Translations under genes and position numbers: made by a program | Notes under the pieces: model-generated | Database searches by the model: none | What the model was told of the DNA's origin: nothing | Seen by the model: only the letters and a program-made list of their open reading frames with translations | In this document: one piece after another, positions 32,426-38,442 of the stretch | Position numbering within the stretch: position 1 is the first letter of the stretch | Layout of the letters: every line of letters starts with the position of its first letter | DNA from: a virus | Taxonomy: Duplodnaviria; Heunggongvirae; Uroviricota; Caudoviricetes | DNA: 64,000 nucleotides | Direction: 5' to 3' (one strand) | Virus record (IMG/VR): IMGVR_UViG_3300022660_000050

Positions 32426-32446
32426 AATTTATATATCTATACTAAG

Positions 32447-32456
32447 TGCTAAATTA
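32447..32456 (+). promoter_or_regulatory. class-B motif
   Basis: TGCTAAATTA 23 nt before ATG 32479. Confidence 0.55.
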
Positions 32457-32478
32457 TATAGAAACAGGAGGACTTAGT

Positions 32479-33195
32479 ATGGATTATAAAAGATTAAATT
32501 TTGAGGACTACTTTATAATATGCTCTGAAAATTGTAATGGGCGAGCAACTGACCTAGAAATAGCTAAATATGAAAGTATACCCTATAGTTATCGCGGCAA
32601 AGATTATTTAGCGGAATATCAAGTACGCTTTGATACAACAAGAAATTGCATCCAAGTGCTTTTTGAGCAAACTTCTACAAAATCAGACTGGCGCGTAAAT
32701 TTTAATTTTGCTTCTAAAATTTATGACAAGTTTACTTTTGACGGCAAGCTAATTCAGCTAAAAGTACATAGAGGTTGGGGTGGAATGTGGCTTGTATGTC
32801 AGCAGACGGTAAGAGCTAAAATTGCCACTTTATTAGAAGAGCATCCTGATTGCTTTATAGAAGTTTTTGGCTGGTCCCTTGGTTCCGGATTAGCACAACT
32901 TTGTGCAGAAGATATTTATTTTAAGTTTGGTATTAAACCATACCTTTATACCTATGGAAGTGTTAAGCCTTTCTTTGGTAAAGATACATATAACTTTGTA
33001 AAATCTTGCTGTGCAGAGGCTTATAACTTCTATGATCACTGTGATATTGTCGGCTATATGGTACCTTTCCCTTGCTGGAAAGCAATAAATCACTGTAAAG
33101 TAAAACTTGAGAAATTTAGTATTCTTAAGCTCTTTAAGCCAAATATATATCATAGCTACTACGATATTCCAGAGCAATACAAAGATTATAACTAA
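32479..33195 (+). CDS. alpha/beta hydrolase, lipase class 3-like
   Basis: VHRGW, FGWSLGSGLA nucleophile elbow, YTYGS, DIV, C-terminal His (IYHSYY). Confidence 0.8.
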   Translation: MDYKRLNFEDYFIICSENCNGRATDLEIAKYESIPYSYRGKDYLAEYQVRFDTTRNCIQVLFEQTSTKSDWRVNFNFASKIYDKFTFDGKLIQLKVHRGWGGMWLVCQQTVRAKIATLLEEHPDCFIEVFGWSLGSGLAQLCAEDIYFKFGIKPYLYTYGSVKPFFGKDTYNFVKSCCAEAYNFYDHCDIVGYMVPFPCWKAINHCKVKLEKFSILKLFKPNIYHSYYDIPEQYKDYN

Positions 33196-33711: not shown

Positions 33712-34557
33712 ATGAGCATTGCAGATCTTTATTTTAAAGATGAAGTAAACGAACTTCTTACTAATGGTTTTAATGACAAGGATTATCCCGTAAGACCTAA
33801 GTGGCCCGACGGCACTCCTGCGCACACAATTAAGACTTTCTGTGCAGTTAGAACTTACGACCTTTCTAAAGAATTTCCTATTCTTACTCTCAGAACTCAG
33901 GCTTTTAAGGGCGTGGTAAGAGAGCTTCTATGGATGTGGCAGAAGAAGTCTAATGTTGTAAATGAACTGGGCAAATCTGCTTCTATTTGGAGAGCTTGGG
34001 AAGGTGAAGACGGAACTATTGGTAAGACCTATGGCTATCAGCTTGGTAAGGTATCTGATTATGGCTACGGCAAGTTTGACCAGGTAGATAATCTTATTTA
34101 TCTTTTGAAGAATAAGCCAATGGACCGCAGAATGATTACTACTATGTGGTGTCCTCAGGACCTTAATGAGATGAATCTTCCTCCGTGTGTGTATGAGACT
34201 CTTTGGGATGTTTCTGACGGAAAGCTTAATTGTACCGTAATTCAGCGTTCAGGTGACTTGCTTGCAGCTGCTGCCTCTGGTGGTTGGGATACTATTCAAT
34301 ATGCAGTTTTGGTACATATGCTTGCACAGGTTTGTGGTTATCAGCCTGGTACACTTGTCCATATTGTAAATAATCTTCATATTTACGACCGTCATGTAGA
34401 CCTTGTTAAGGAAGTTATGGAAAATCCTGAATATCCTGGTCCTCAGCTTAAGCTTAATCCAGACGTAAAGGATTTTTATGACTTTACAGAAGATGACTTT
34501 GAGCTTATTGGTTATCAGTCTACTAAGCTTGCTACTAAGTTTGAGGTAGCGGAGTAA
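33712..34557 (+). CDS. thyA: thymidylate synthase (ThyA)
   Basis: ELLWMW, YGYQL, RRMI, LPPC, QRSGD, HIYDRH. Confidence 0.96.
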   Translation: MSIADLYFKDEVNELLTNGFNDKDYPVRPKWPDGTPAHTIKTFCAVRTYDLSKEFPILTLRTQAFKGVVRELLWMWQKKSNVVNELGKSASIWRAWEGEDGTIGKTYGYQLGKVSDYGYGKFDQVDNLIYLLKNKPMDRRMITTMWCPQDLNEMNLPPCVYETLWDVSDGKLNCTVIQRSGDLLAAAASGGWDTIQYAVLVHMLAQVCGYQPGTLVHIVNNLHIYDRHVDLVKEVMENPEYPGPQLKLNPDVKDFYDFTEDDFELIGYQSTKLATKFEVAE

Positions 34558-34766
34558 TGGGAACTGCTTCAATTCATACTTCTACAGGTTCAACAATTTA
34601 CTATTCCCAACGATGTTTGTGCTGTGAAAACACAAGACGTCTTCCGGAAGGAATGACTTATTGCAGTACACCTTGGGTTTGTGATGAGTGCAGAGACGCT
34701 ATTGCTTTTCTTAAAGACTTCAAAAAAGAATATATCAAAGCACAAAAAATGCTGGATAAAACGTAA
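34557..34766 (+). CDS. small Zn-finger protein
   Basis: CLCC...CDEC; TAATG-coupled. Confidence 0.6.
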   Translation: MGTASIHTSTGSTIYYSQRCLCCENTRRLPEGMTYCSTPWVCDECRDAIAFLKDFKKEYIKAQKMLDKT

Positions 34767-34775
34767 AATAATGTT

Positions 34776-34820
34776 AAGGTAGGCTTGAAAAATAGCCTAC
34801 CTTTATTGTATTATATAATA
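34776..34820 (+). promoter_or_regulatory. fused terminator plus class-A promoter ahead of NAD operon
   Basis: AAGGTAGGCT/AGCCTACCTT-T then ATTGTATTATATAATA. Confidence 0.75.
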
Positions 34821-34850
34821 TAAAAATAATAAACAGGAGTAACATGAATT

Positions 34851-36050
34851 ATGAAACTTAATCCTATTATTAACTCGTTGCTTGAAACTGACCTCTACAA
34901 GTTTTCCATGGGTCAGGCAATCTATCATCAGTTCCCCAGTTACATGACAACTTGGACTTTTAAGTGCAGAAACAAGGATGTTTTCTTCACTCAGGAGATG
35001 GTAGAGGAAATCAAAGAGCAACTTAGAGCTTATTGCAAACTTCGTTTTACTGAGGATGAGCTTGCCTACCTCGGAAATATTAAGTGGTTTAAGCCTTCTT
35101 ATATTAATTTCCTTCGTCTCTGGCAGCCGAGATTTGAGGATTTCACAATTACTACCGATGCAGCATGCGGTCTCGCGATTGAGACAGACGGCTCTTGGTT
35201 GAATACTTCTATGTATGAGATCCCTACTCTCGCAATCGTTAATGAAGTTTATTTTAGAATGAACTACAGCTACGAGGAAAGATTTGAGAGCTTCAAGAAA
35301 AAGCTCGATGAAAAGATCGACAAGATTGATAAAGAGTATTTCCTCGGTACTTATAGTGAGTTTGGTCTCAGAAGACGTTTGTCCAGTGAAGCTCAGGAGC
35401 TGGCTGTTCAGAAGCTTGCAGCTACCTCTTCCGAAACTTCTCACTTCATTGGCACCTCTAATGTATATCTTGCAAAGAAGTATGGTTTGACTCCTGTAGG
35501 TACTATGGCACATGAATGGATTATGTGCACCGGTCAAGGTAATCTTAAGCATAATCCTGCTTATTCGAACTGGTACGCTCTCGATGCTTGGGTTAAGGAA
35601 TATGGTATCCTCAATGGTATCGCGCTTACTGATACTATTACTACTAAGTGTTTTGCTAAGGACTTCCAGCTCACTTATGCTACTCTTTTTAGTGGCGTTA
35701 GACACGATTCCGGTGATCCTTATGAATGGGGTGACTTCATGATTGAGCACTACAAGTCTCTCGGTATTGACCCTAAGGGTAAGACTCTTCTTTTTAGTGA
35801 CAGTCTTAACTTTGAGAAGGCAACAGCCCTTAACAAGTATTTTAAGGATAAAGCTAAGCCCGCGTTTGGTATTGGTACATATATCTCTAATGACACTGAT
35901 ATGCCCGCTCTTAACATCGTTATGAAAACTACTAAGTGTAATGGTACCGACGTTGCTAAGATTTCTGACGTCCCCGGTAAGGGAATGTGCAAGAATCAGG
36001 ATTATGTAGACTACCTTAATCGAACCATCACTTGGAGAATGGAGCACTAA
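34851..36050 (+). CDS. pncB: nicotinate phosphoribosyltransferase
   Basis: LLETDLYKFSM, SEFGLRRR, GTMAHEW, GVRHDSGDP, FGIGT, KISDVPGK (PncB-type, not NadV-type motifs). Confidence 0.93.
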   Translation: MKLNPIINSLLETDLYKFSMGQAIYHQFPSYMTTWTFKCRNKDVFFTQEMVEEIKEQLRAYCKLRFTEDELAYLGNIKWFKPSYINFLRLWQPRFEDFTITTDAACGLAIETDGSWLNTSMYEIPTLAIVNEVYFRMNYSYEERFESFKKKLDEKIDKIDKEYFLGTYSEFGLRRRLSSEAQELAVQKLAATSSETSHFIGTSNVYLAKKYGLTPVGTMAHEWIMCTGQGNLKHNPAYSNWYALDAWVKEYGILNGIALTDTITTKCFAKDFQLTYATLFSGVRHDSGDPYEWGDFMIEHYKSLGIDPKGKTLLFSDSLNFEKATALNKYFKDKAKPAFGIGTYISNDTDMPALNIVMKTTKCNGTDVAKISDVPGKGMCKNQDYVDYLNRTITWRMEH

Positions 36051-36589
36051 TGAAGCTTTATAATTTAGGAATGGTCCTCGGCCGTTTCCAAGTGCTTCAT
36101 AAGGGACATGTAGCAATGGTAAAGCATGCTCTTGAGTTTTGTGACCAGGTAGTTGTCTATATCGGCTCAAGCCAAGAGCAGCGCACTACTACCAACCCTT
36201 TTAGTTATGAAGAACGCGTTGAGATGTTTGAAAGAGTTTTTGTTGCGGAATGCATTTGTAAAAAGCTTTTGATTCGTCCGCTTCCTGATATCGGTGCAGG
36301 TAATAACTCTTCTTGGGGAGAGTATGTAATGAATACTTTTAATAAAGAATTTCACCGACTCCCTGACCTTTATGTAACCGGCTGCGAAAAAGAACGTGCT
36401 TCTTGGTTTACAGATGTTATTGCGCCAAATACAGATGAATTAAGAATGACTCGTAAAAATATTGACGTATCTGGTACCTGGTGCCGTCAGGCGCTACTTG
36501 CAAATGATTACGAACAGTGGTGTAAAATGGTTCCTTATGAGTTGTTTGACAAGTTCAAAGAATATAAAAATATATTAGAAGAGGTATAA
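36050..36589 (+). CDS. nicotinate/nicotinamide mononucleotide adenylyltransferase (NadM/NadR-like)
   Basis: GRFQVLHKGH HxGH motif, IGSSQ...NPFSYEER, SGTWCR; TAATG-coupled start 36050. Confidence 0.88.
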   Translation: MKLYNLGMVLGRFQVLHKGHVAMVKHALEFCDQVVVYIGSSQEQRTTTNPFSYEERVEMFERVFVAECICKKLLIRPLPDIGAGNNSSWGEYVMNTFNKEFHRLPDLYVTGCEKERASWFTDVIAPNTDELRMTRKNIDVSGTWCRQALLANDYEQWCKMVPYELFDKFKEYKNILEEV

Positions 36590-36590
36590 T

Positions 36591-37106
36591 ATGGATAAGT
36601 TACTTATTATTGTTGATATGCAGAATGACTTTATTGACGGCGCGCTTGCAAATCCTGCTGCGCAGGCAATCGTTACAGGTATTGTAGAGCTTGCTAAAAA
36701 TTGGACAGGTAAGCTTTGTGTAACCTATGATACTCATCAGGAGAATTATCTTGAGACTCAGGAAGGTAAGAATCTTCCGTTCGCACATTGTATTATTAAT
36801 ACAGAAGGTCACAGGCTTAATGCACAAATCGCGGCTGTAACTAATGACCGAGTTAACTACACAGTATTTAAACCTACTTTTGGTTTTGCTAACTGGGGTC
36901 AGTATGGTTTTGATAATCACTTCAATGAAGTAGTTGTTGTCGGAACCTGTACTGATATTTGTGTAGTAAGTAATGTACTTGCAATTAAGGCCGCTTATCC
37001 AGAGCTTAAGGTAACTGTTATCGAGAATCTTTGTGCAGGGCTTTCTCCTGAAAAGCATGCAGCAGCTATTGAGGTTATGAAGAGTTGTCAGGTAAACGTA
37101 GTTTAA
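36591..37106 (+). CDS. pncA: nicotinamidase (isochorismatase family)
   Basis: IVDMQNDFIDG, DTH, HCI, FK, GTCTDICV (Asp-Lys-Cys triad). Confidence 0.88.
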   Translation: MDKLLIIVDMQNDFIDGALANPAAQAIVTGIVELAKNWTGKLCVTYDTHQENYLETQEGKNLPFAHCIINTEGHRLNAQIAAVTNDRVNYTVFKPTFGFANWGQYGFDNHFNEVVVVGTCTDICVVSNVLAIKAAYPELKVTVIENLCAGLSPEKHAAAIEVMKSCQVNVV

Positions 37107-37117
37107 GGAGTGCTCAA

Positions 37118-37831
37118 ATGTCTGAGAAATTAAATAGAATTATCGACTGGATGTATGAGTTTAAAGAGAAAAATAGTGTTAAAGGTGTAGTCCTTGGGCT
37201 TTCCGGGGGAAAAGATTCTACAGTAGTGGCAATGCTTGCAAAGAAGGTCTTTGGTGATAATGTAATTGCTGTATCTATGCCTAATGGCAGACAGTCTGAT
37301 ATTGGTGATGTTAGAGATATTATTACGACTTTGAAATTGACTTCGCCGTTGGTAAATATTCAGAATACTTTTGATACTCTTATTCATGACACTTATATGA
37401 ATATTTCTGACAAAGCAAAGACTAATATCGCACCTCGTATCAGAATGACGGTGCTTTACGCTATTGCTCAGTCCCTTGGCTATCTCGTTATTGGCACCGG
37501 CAATAAGTCCGAGGCTATGATTGGCTGGACTACAAAGTTTGGTGATTCTGCTTGCGACTTCAATCCTATCGGACACCTTACTTGTCGTGAAGTAATCGAG
37601 ATCGGTAAGGAACTCGCTGAGGATTTCGGTCTTGATATTAACTATATCATTAAGAAACCTGCTGACGGACTTACCAGTAAGACCGACGAAGATAACTTTG
37701 GTTTCACCTATGATGAACTCGATGACTACCTTATGTACGGCATTGAGGGCCCTAACATCGATAAGATTAAAAACATGATTGCTTGGGCAGAACACAAGAG
37801 ACAAATGCCTCCTAAAGTGGAGTCGTATTAA
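37118..37831 (+). CDS. nadE: NH3-dependent NAD+ synthetase
   Basis: LGLSGGKDS, NIAPRIRM, GTGNKSE, TKFGD, PADGL, DEDNFG; no glutaminase domain. Confidence 0.93.
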   Translation: MSEKLNRIIDWMYEFKEKNSVKGVVLGLSGGKDSTVVAMLAKKVFGDNVIAVSMPNGRQSDIGDVRDIITTLKLTSPLVNIQNTFDTLIHDTYMNISDKAKTNIAPRIRMTVLYAIAQSLGYLVIGTGNKSEAMIGWTTKFGDSACDFNPIGHLTCREVIEIGKELAEDFGLDINYIIKKPADGLTSKTDEDNFGFTYDELDDYLMYGIEGPNIDKIKNMIAWAEHKRQMPPKVESY

Positions 37832-37841
37832 AAGGAAAAGT

Positions 37842-38390
37842 ATGAAAAATTTATTTAAACATTTAAAAACTGTACACATTCATAGAAAGTTTGTTAGAAA
37901 AGCTTGTTTTAAAATGGGGTTATTTTGGCAAGGTTTGACTCATGACTTGAGTAAGTATTCTATTACCGAACTTAGTATGTGTAAATATTACACAGGTAAA
38001 GGCAGTCCGCATCAAGTGGCACGTGAACAGCTTGGCTATTCTCCCAGCTGGATTCATCACTATCACATGAATAAACATCACTTTCAGTTTTGGTGGGATG
38101 AGGATGAAGAAGGTAAAATCATTCCAATGAAGATGCCCTATAAGTATCTTATTGAAAGTTTTTGTGATATGCTAGGCGCTAGCAAGGCATATAATCCAGA
38201 TAGTTGGGAACCTCAAATGCTTCTTGACTACTGGAATAATAAATGTGTTGGTAAGCGAATTATGCATGAGGCTTCTGTTAAGTTTTTAGATGCTCAAATT
38301 AAAAATTTAGTAACATGTGGCGAAGAAGCTTTCTTTGAATGGTACAAAAATAATAAAGATTTTCTTAGAAAAACTTATAGCGAAATGTGA
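37842..38390 (+). CDS. DUF5662-like (HD-related) protein
   Basis: HLKTV..HR, HDLSK, HHYHMNKHH, ESFCD. Confidence 0.7.
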   Translation: MKNLFKHLKTVHIHRKFVRKACFKMGLFWQGLTHDLSKYSITELSMCKYYTGKGSPHQVAREQLGYSPSWIHHYHMNKHHFQFWWDEDEEGKIIPMKMPYKYLIESFCDMLGASKAYNPDSWEPQMLLDYWNNKCVGKRIMHEASVKFLDAQIKNLVTCGEEAFFEWYKNNKDFLRKTYSEM

Positions 38391-38395
38391 TAATT

Positions 38396-38442
38396 AAAGC
38401 AGGCTGTAAAAAATAGCCTGCTTTTTATTGTATATTATAATA
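38396..38442 (+). promoter_or_regulatory. fused terminator plus class-A promoter cassette
   Basis: AAAGCAGGCT/AGCCTGCTTT-TT then ATTGTATATTATAATA. Confidence 0.75.

Follow-up and report, generated by a model that had tools for sequence, protein, structure and literature searches.

We examined a run of five genes in a 64,000-nucleotide stretch of DNA (hereafter the window) from a Caudoviricetes virus, IMG/VR record IMGVR_UViG_3300022660_000050; the complete virus record is 220,023 bp long, with a CheckV completeness of 96%. The genes lie between positions 34851 and 38390 and most likely form a single transcription unit. We consider it likely that this unit is a host-derived, deamidating (Preiss-Handler) salvage operon for nicotinamide adenine dinucleotide (NAD+), carried behind a recurrent phage promoter cassette within a nucleotide-metabolism and replication module. 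The unit and its flanks contain the following features (aa, amino acids).

34776..34803, + strand: terminator-like hairpin closing the upstream thyA-orf69 unit (10-bp stem with 5 G-C pairs, then a T-run)
34803..34819, + strand: promoter-like motif TTATTGTAT-N-TATAAT, from 9-mer enrichment; a near-identical cassette lies at 38425-38441
34836-34840, + strand: AGGAG ribosome-binding site for pncB
34851..36050, + strand: pncB, nicotinate phosphoribosyltransferase, 399 aa (NF003704, TIGR01514, GTMAHEW)
36050..36589, + strand: NadM/archaeal-type adenylyltransferase, 179 aa from ATG 36050 (CTP_transf_like, HKGH, SGTWCR)
36591..37106, + strand: pncA-type nicotinamidase, 171 aa (Isochorismatase family, catalytic and metal residues)
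37118..37831, + strand: nadE, NH3-dependent NAD+ synthetase, 237 aa from ATG 37118 (TIGR00552, SGGKDS loop)
37842..38390, + strand: DUF5662, fifth gene of the operon, likely an HD-superfamily metal-dependent phosphohydrolase (PF18907, 104 bits)
38396..38424, + strand: terminator-like hairpin ending the operon (12-bp stem, T-run), followed by the promoter-like motif at 38425-38441

Tight coupling and flanking signals delimit the unit. Junction sequences give gene spacings of -1, 1, 11 and 10 nt, with ribosome-binding sites present: the adenylyltransferase ATG at 36050 overlaps the pncB stop codon as TAATG, pncA begins 1 nt past the preceding stop, nadE starts at ATG 37118 behind TAAGGAG rather than at TTG 37085, and the DUF5662 ATG at 37842 lies 10 nt past nadE. 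G+C-rich hairpins with a T-run flank the genes on both sides, each followed by TTATTGTAT, a few bases and TATAAT. Together, these terminator/promoter cassettes and the tight coupling lead us to a five-gene unit at 34851-38390. The initial annotation, made from the sequence alone, had described a four-gene operon at 34851-37831 behind one promoter cassette. Its four intact, coupled + strand reading frames are found there, and the cassette recurs on both flanks with its 9-mer enriched in the window (10 occurrences against 1.6 expected, 9/10 of them on the + strand), but the extent had to be revised because DUF5662 belongs to the unit. The TTATTGTAT-N-TATAAT motif probably represents a class of early or middle promoters, separate from the GCTAAATTA class of the same genome. 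Its sites include 33229, 34803, 38425, 45488, 49703, 56073 and 61311, usually directly after a terminator hairpin.

Family scores and motifs bear out the assignment of the first four genes to PncB, an adenylyltransferase, PncA and NadE. By its scores the first product is PncB beyond reasonable doubt: it reaches 478 bits on NF003704 (cut-off 379) and 414 bits on TIGR01514 (cut-off 269.55), matches both Pfam NAPRTase domains (PF17767, PF04095) and contains GTMAHEW, with the conserved His of the GT-x-AHE motif. The claim that the phosphoribosyltransferase is PncB, not Nampt or Namat, stands on these same cut-offs. The second product matches Pfam CTP_transf_like at 46.9 bits and carries the nucleotidyltransferase motifs HKGH (HxGH) and SGTWCR (SxTxxR). 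Its best matches are archaeal/NadM-type nicotinamide mononucleotide (NMN) adenylyltransferases (NMNATs; NF002243, TIGR01527, PDB 1f9a at E 2.9e-13, and 2qjt), and on this evidence we class it as NadM/archaeal-type, not NadD-type. The pncA product scores 72 bits against the Isochorismatase family (cut-off 27), and its top PDB matches are nearly all nicotinamidases (1ilw, 2h0r, 3pl1, 3o90). In phmmer alignments to 1ilw and 3pl1 it keeps the catalytic residues D9/K94/C124 (K94 is shifted by one column in the alignment as printed) as well as D47/H49/H66, which bind the metal. NadE reaches 196 bits on TIGR00552 (cut-off 63.65) and 187 bits on NAD_synthase and contains the GLSGGKDS loop. It is a single-domain protein of 237-248 aa that lacks a glutaminase domain, and its PDB matches (2e18, 127 bits; 3p52, 115; 2pz8, 110; and Francisella NadE 3fiu, 106) are NH3-dependent NAD+ synthetases.

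These four enzymes would together return nicotinamide to NAD+. PncA would hydrolyze nicotinamide to nicotinate and ammonia; PncB would combine nicotinate with host phosphoribosyl pyrophosphate (PRPP), in an ATP-stimulated reaction, to give nicotinate mononucleotide (NaMN); the NadM-type enzyme would adenylylate NaMN to nicotinate adenine dinucleotide (NaAD); and NadE would amidate NaAD to NAD+ at the expense of ammonia and ATP. Overall, nicotinamide would be restored to NAD+ faster than by the host alone. Nicotinamide might be supplied by any NAD+-cleaving enzyme, either a host immune NADase or ordinary turnover, and because the route uses PRPP, not ADP-ribose, the fate of ADP-ribose at the NADase would be irrelevant to it. 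The logic of the initial annotation, from nicotinamide through nicotinate, NaMN and NaAD to NAD+, is thus backed by the enzyme families, with the NadM-type nature of the adenylyltransferase allowing either order of the last two steps.

Three observations favor adenylylation before amidation. A NadD-type enzyme fills the gap between pncB and nadE in a large group of related phages (TIGR00482, 102 bits; cut-off 112), and because it holds that slot in related clusters we take the NadM-type gene to occupy the NaMN-adenylyltransferase slot here. According to published work, archaeal NadM accepts NMN as well as NaMN, and in M. jannaschii the single-domain NadE is a genuine NAD synthetase acting on NaAD (PMC3376133). 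Finally, the phage encodes a separate NadR-like protein for NMN (see below), beside which a second, purely NMN-specific adenylyltransferase would be expected to be redundant. From these points we infer the substrates of the adenylyltransferase and NadE, and hence the order NaMN to NaAD to NAD+. The reverse order, as in Francisella tularensis, has NadE acting as an NMN synthetase (NaMN to NMN) and the NadM-type enzyme then converting NMN to NAD+. Both systems combine a NadM-type enzyme, a single-domain NadE and PncB-derived NaMN, the NadM/archaeal family uses NMN well, and in Francisella the replacement of NadD by NadM accompanies a NadE homologue that acts as an NMN synthetase (PMC3376133). 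We nonetheless find this order unlikely: 3fiu is among the better PDB matches of the phage NadE but does not rise above the three ordinary NAD synthetases, related phage clusters couple NadE with a NadD-type enzyme, archaeal NadM and single-domain NadE run the NaAD route (PMC3376133), and NadR of the same phage already serves NMN.

The same phage also carries genes for a second route of NAD+ supply. A gene for a NadR-like protein (369 aa) overlaps one for a PnuC equivalog (228 aa) at L248:1486-3256, on the - strand of that locus; the pair lies at G000:C1 ~16.4-18.2 kb, about 44 kb beyond the end of the window and outside the operon. The NadR-like protein joins CTP_transf_like (NMNAT) and AAA_28 kinase domains, falls short of the TIGR01526 cut-off (220 bits against 341) and is ~32% identical to NadR of T5-like phages, while PnuC exceeds that of TIGR01528 (142 bits against 42). 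By domain content, the pair has the architecture of NARP3, a third validated phage pathway consisting of PnuC and NadR (PMC13464706), giving this phage two predicted NAD+ supply routes. The initial annotation had named NARP1 and NARP2 as the described counter-pathways; this count leaves out NARP3, which has been validated as well (PMC13464706) and whose gene pair is present in this very phage.

Comparison with the known pathways shows that the operon is distinct from each. Across the 220-kb genome we find no second phosphoribosyltransferase-family gene, the sole PF04095 gene being the one that passes the PncB equivalog cut-off, and no Pribosyltran_N match, so no gene resembling PRPP synthetase (Prs) or Adps. 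With no such gene and a single phosphoribosyltransferase-family gene, pncB, the operon is neither NARP1 nor NARP2, as had been claimed. NARP1 and NARP1-AP (Adps and Namat, with or without the Macro-domain phosphatase Adpp) likewise rebuild NAD+ after cleavage, but this phage encodes neither a PRPS-like Adps nor Namat, lacks Macro domain genes, and has in DUF5662 a protein with an HD-type motif. NARP2 (Nampt and Nmnat; NadV/NatV in Vibrio phage KVP40) is closer in that it also starts from nicotinamide and PRPP, uses an NMNAT-superfamily enzyme and is independent of ADP-ribose; in contrast, the operon lacks Nampt and would follow a four-step route through nicotinate that requires NadE. NARP3 (a PnuC-like transporter and a NadR-like enzyme, as in phage Bas30; PMC13464706) is likewise a phage NAD+ supply module, but it imports and phosphorylates nicotinamide riboside, and its genes lie outside the operon. 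The genome also has a single Nudix-domain protein (288 aa, L087:1264-2127, - strand) with no NCBIfam match, whose candidate activities are ADP-ribose pyrophosphatase and RNA decapping.

The enzyme set is conserved across several rearrangements in related phages. Distribution over phage genomes had been proposed as a check on the initial annotation, and it is broad: an IMG/VR scan with PncB yielded 136 related contigs, so that the set recurs in at least 136 IMG/VR contigs from several PncB clades, in at least five gene orders. The closest relative (L007) has a PncB 89% identical to that of the window and the same gene order. A large group, mostly of ~90-200-kb contigs from human gut samples and including one record classed as a provirus (L027), has the order PncA-DUF5662-PncB-X-NadE, in which X is NadD-type. 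A third, distant phage clade, found by a scan with a DUF5662 alignment, has PncB 46-49% identical; one of its members (L097) has the order PncA-DUF5662-PncB-NMNAT-NadE, and another (L091), a complete 170-kb phage with terminal repeats, has the order NMNAT-NadE-DUF5662-PncB-PncA. Judged from sequence families, the adenylyltransferase slot is thus filled by either of two non-orthologous types, NadM or NadD.

Other comparisons with phage sequences were less productive. Megablast of the region against GenBank phages gave no match, and tblastn matches of PncB to "Acinetobacter phage MD-2021a" and Moraxella phage Mcat17 proved to be bacterial contigs or flanking DNA, not phage genes. A search for a 741-aa protein of the phage in five related records gave no match, a result that is uninformative. 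In the human fecal phage contig MT835946.1 (L001), positions 2-920 hold the 3′ end of a pncB gene, 79% identical to that of the window, followed directly by nadE with neither an adenylyltransferase nor pncA between them.

Sequence identity, phylogeny and synteny all point to a host origin of the operon. Chromosomal PncB sequences of Lachnospiraceae, including those of cultured Butyrivibrio, Lachnospira, Roseburia and Agathobacter, share 74-78% identity with the phage PncB (one genome per species was compared), and the phage PncB is as near to its bacterial homologues as to most phage ones. In a quick maximum-likelihood tree of PncB, in which most deep forks were unresolved, the window sequence and its closest relative (support 100) nest inside the Lachnospiraceae radiation; the large phage group falls elsewhere inside the same radiation, and the distant phage clade is on a long branch. 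Bacterial loci show the synteny pncA-pncB(-nadD or nadM)(-nadE), with PncA homologues encoded directly upstream of pncB in Lachnospiraceae. Because of this PncB identity, tree nesting and bacterial pncA-pncB synteny, we regard the phage genes as host-derived, and the host of the phage is probably a member of the Lachnospiraceae. The chromosomal operons of Agathobacter, Roseburia, Butyrivibrio and Lachnospira resemble the phage unit further in PncA (37-47% identical), in the adjacency of pncA and pncB, often with nadE next, and in the presence of a NadM-type gene at some loci (L180, L181). The phage unit differs in its order pncB-nadM-pncA-nadE, its phage promoter/terminator cassette and its DUF5662 gene. 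One bacterial locus deserves separate mention: in the cultured isolate Agathobacter sp. LCP21S3_B2, a 176-kb contig (contig00006; L181) has the order NMNAT-PncA-PncB-NadE, and its PncB shares 98% identity with that of IMG/VR "viral" contigs (L014/L016) and 87% with the PncB of the large phage group. The isolate's contig may be a large prophage or an episomal phage, and it gives a host lead.

Several points weigh against a Preiss-Handler salvage operon. Two of the enzymes fall under NCBIfam equivalog cut-offs, the adenylyltransferase at 72 against 181 and PncA at 27.6 bits against 174 (NF008623, a model built on the longer E. coli-type PncA). No Prs gene is present in the phage genome, which is 96% complete, and the flux would therefore rely on host PRPP. 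NadA is present in 4/5 of the candidate-host Lachnospiraceae genomes checked; we accordingly set aside the idea that the phage fills an NAD auxotrophy of its host. Finally, the neighboring thyA, dCMP (deoxycytidine monophosphate) deaminase, dihydrofolate reductase (DHFR), dUTPase, topoisomerase II, DnaB and DNA polymerase genes suit a housekeeping role in nucleotide metabolism no less than one in counter-defence.

A more skeptical view is that the genes were recently acquired from a host chromosome and serve no selected function, or that the isochorismatase-family gene does not encode a nicotinamidase. The low PncA score on the E. coli-type model is what such a misassignment would predict, and the similarity of PncB to bacterial homologues, equal to that to most phage ones, would suit a passenger. 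Yet all reading frames are intact and keep their motifs, a phage-type promoter cassette precedes the tightly coupled genes, the set recurs with differing gene orders in distinct phage PncB clades, and PncA retains its catalytic triad and metal site and has nicotinamidases as its nearest solved structures. We therefore consider a passenger or misassigned locus very improbable and retain the salvage operon.

The fifth gene, DUF5662, is likely an HD-superfamily metal-dependent phosphohydrolase. The family has 1,988 representatives at E <= 0.001, and H15, H35-D36, H74, N78, H81, E106 and D110 are invariant in 38 sequences (H...HD...H...N..H...E...D). The AlphaFold (AF2) model has a predicted local distance difference test score (pLDDT) of 96.8; structural comparison consistently returned just HD-GYP, PgpH and V-cGAP phosphodiesterases, with Z of 5-6.8, values that are weak for a helical protein, and a Foldseek search of the model against PDB and BFVD returned nothing usable. 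The automatic atlas name "catalase" is without support, and the literature searched makes no mention of the family.

Association of DUF5662 with NAD+ genes is recurrent in phages and specific to them. Phages from three PncB clades carry it inside their NAD clusters, arranged in at least five gene orders (loci L027, L091, L097, L109, L118, L122), and it lies within 3 kb of pncB in 0/80 bacterial (Lachnospiraceae) loci, so that its repeated insertion into phage, not bacterial, NAD clusters is real. An obligate link between DUF5662 and NAD phosphoribosyltransferases can be rejected as a general rule: among 48 phage records with DUF5662 but no nearby NAD genes, only two have a NAPRTase-family gene, in neither case adjacent. 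Neighbors in such phages are gyrB, PhoH-PIN, RNase H, exonuclease, metallophosphoesterase and RNA ligase genes. DUF5662 also occurs fused to 2-thiouracil desulfurase (TudS), HAD_SAK_2 (the HAD domain of RNA-repair proteins), nucleoside 2-deoxyribosyltransferase-like, DMP19 and PLP decarboxylase domains (P0152, P0173, P0126, P0203, P0224, P0223), partners that hint at salvage of nucleotides or modified bases. Overall, its sequence contexts suggest that DUF5662 is a general nucleotide-handling hydrolase of phages and bacteria, not an obligate NAD partner.

One could nevertheless read the whole unit as a five-gene, phage-specific counter-defence module, in which the Preiss-Handler enzymes would rebuild NAD+ from nicotinamide, and DUF5662, added by phages to a host-derived operon, would clear or convert some phosphorylated compound that NAD+-cleaving immunity leaves behind or signals with, such as a derivative of ADP-ribose or a cyclic nucleotide. 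Such a role would parallel the Macro-domain phosphatase added to NARP1, and NARP1-AP sets a precedent for an accessory phosphohydrolase gene within a phage NAD+ operon. We think this improbable, slightly more so than the Francisella-type order considered above. Even so, the recurrence of DUF5662 in phage NAD clusters is the first concrete functional lead for a family of ~2,000 representatives, albeit a weak one because the family is common in phages without NAD genes.

Genes for nucleotide metabolism and replication surround the operon, and none of its neighbors is a known anti-defence gene. Long open reading frames (ORFs) of the window are nearly all on the + strand and include replication genes (topoisomerase II subunits, a DnaB-type helicase and a split family-A DNA polymerase) and nucleotide genes (thymidylate synthase, thyA; dCMP deaminase; DHFR; and a dUTPase-like gene). 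Two further genes lie upstream of the operon. A 69-aa Cys-rich ORF at 34557-34766 (CC...C...C..C, zinc-ribbon-like) begins at the thyA stop codon in an ATGA-type overlap, has no family match and stops just short of the terminator that precedes pncB. Between the topoisomerase II genes and thyA, at 32446-33195, lies a class-3 lipase gene (PF01764), an odd presence among replication genes.

What the phage gains from the salvage operon can plausibly be read in two ways, which we rate about equally, each at somewhat less than an even chance, and which are not mutually exclusive. The first is counter-defence, for which "NARP4" would be a name: the operon would be kept to rebuild NAD+ from nicotinamide freed by SIR2, TIR, SEFIR and RES defences, thereby rescuing replication. 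Precedent comes from NARP1, NARP2 and NARP3, in which NAD+ synthesis by the phage can override NAD+-depleting defences, and the present route would begin at nicotinamide, the product common to the NADase defences in the NARP papers. PRPP-dependent NARP2 overcame aRES, which defeats ADP-ribose-dependent NARP1 (bioRxiv 10.64898/2026.01.28.702374). The NARP3-type NadR-PnuC pair in the same phage amounts to a double investment in NAD+ supply, the gene set has been retained through rearrangements in several phage lineages, and the same idea has been put forward by Li et al. (PMC11662467). On the other hand, this case is built by inference, the genes next to the operon serve nucleotide synthesis and replication and include no known anti-defence gene, each NAD+ would cost PRPP and about three ATP in a phage that has no Prs, and the host encodes close homologues of the enzymes, so that a phage copy would gain only dose and timing.

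The second possibility is an auxiliary metabolic module that raises NAD(P)+ for phage nucleotide synthesis and replication (thyA, DHFR and others), independently of immunity. This is consistent with the position of the operon in the nucleotide-metabolism/replication block, with the TTATTGTAT...TATAAT motif that precedes both the operon and the neighboring dCMP deaminase-DHFR unit, and with the derivation of the genes from host housekeeping genes. NAD+-consuming replication and repair genes have also been reported in NAD-jumbo phages (PMC11662467). The phage in question, however, has no NAD+-dependent (LigA-type) ligase, no Macro domain gene and no second phosphoribosyltransferase; a search for ADP-ribosyltransferases gave no match either, but its control matched nowhere and was therefore uninformative. 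With none of these NAD+-consuming genes present, no obvious phage NAD+ sink was found. A metabolic role is in any case compatible with counter-defence.

Phage Preiss-Handler genes have been described before. Complete NAD+ salvage or Preiss-Handler pathways were reported from bioinformatics only in 174/668 gut jumbo phages (Li et al., Microbiome 2024, PMC11662467); the authors name a pncB-nadD-nadE cluster (e.g., in Kuafu_71), mention phage pncA and suggest counter-defence. In a paper on a Xanthomonas phage, pncB, nadM, nadD and nadE are counted among the auxiliary metabolic genes (PMC13384950). The novelty that the initial annotation implied for a phage Preiss-Handler route does not hold, the route having already been described in silico together with speculation on counter-defence (PMC11662467; also PMC13384950). 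PncA, PncB and NadE go unmentioned in the NARP papers, and the term "NARP4" appears in the literature searched only in work unrelated to phage NAD+ pathways.

Having a genome of more than 200 kb with adjacent pncB, NaMN adenylyltransferase slot and nadE, the phage belongs with the NAD-jumbo phages bearing Preiss-Handler clusters (PMC11662467), its adenylyltransferase being NadM-type, not nadD. It shares with them clustered pncB, nadE and adenylyltransferase genes in large gut phages, a predicted deamidated route to NAD+ and the speculation on counter-defence. The operon differs from those clusters in adding pncA, and hence a start at nicotinamide, in having a NadM-type, not a NadD-type, enzyme together with a co-transcribed DUF5662, and in a likely Lachnospiraceae host, against the mainly Bacteroidota hosts reported for human-gut NAD-jumbo phages. 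It is thus a clean and complete example of a kind already described, with local twists in its NadM-type enzyme, its DUF5662 and the coexisting NARP3-type pair.

NARP1, NARP2 and NARP3 have each been shown to defeat NAD+-depleting immunity, and large gut phages widely carry the deamidated route. As a compact, complete and clearly bounded example of that route, in a phage that also bears a NARP3-type pair, the operon offers a reasonable test case for whether Preiss-Handler salvage may serve as a fourth counter-defence route and whether phages stack several routes to NAD+.

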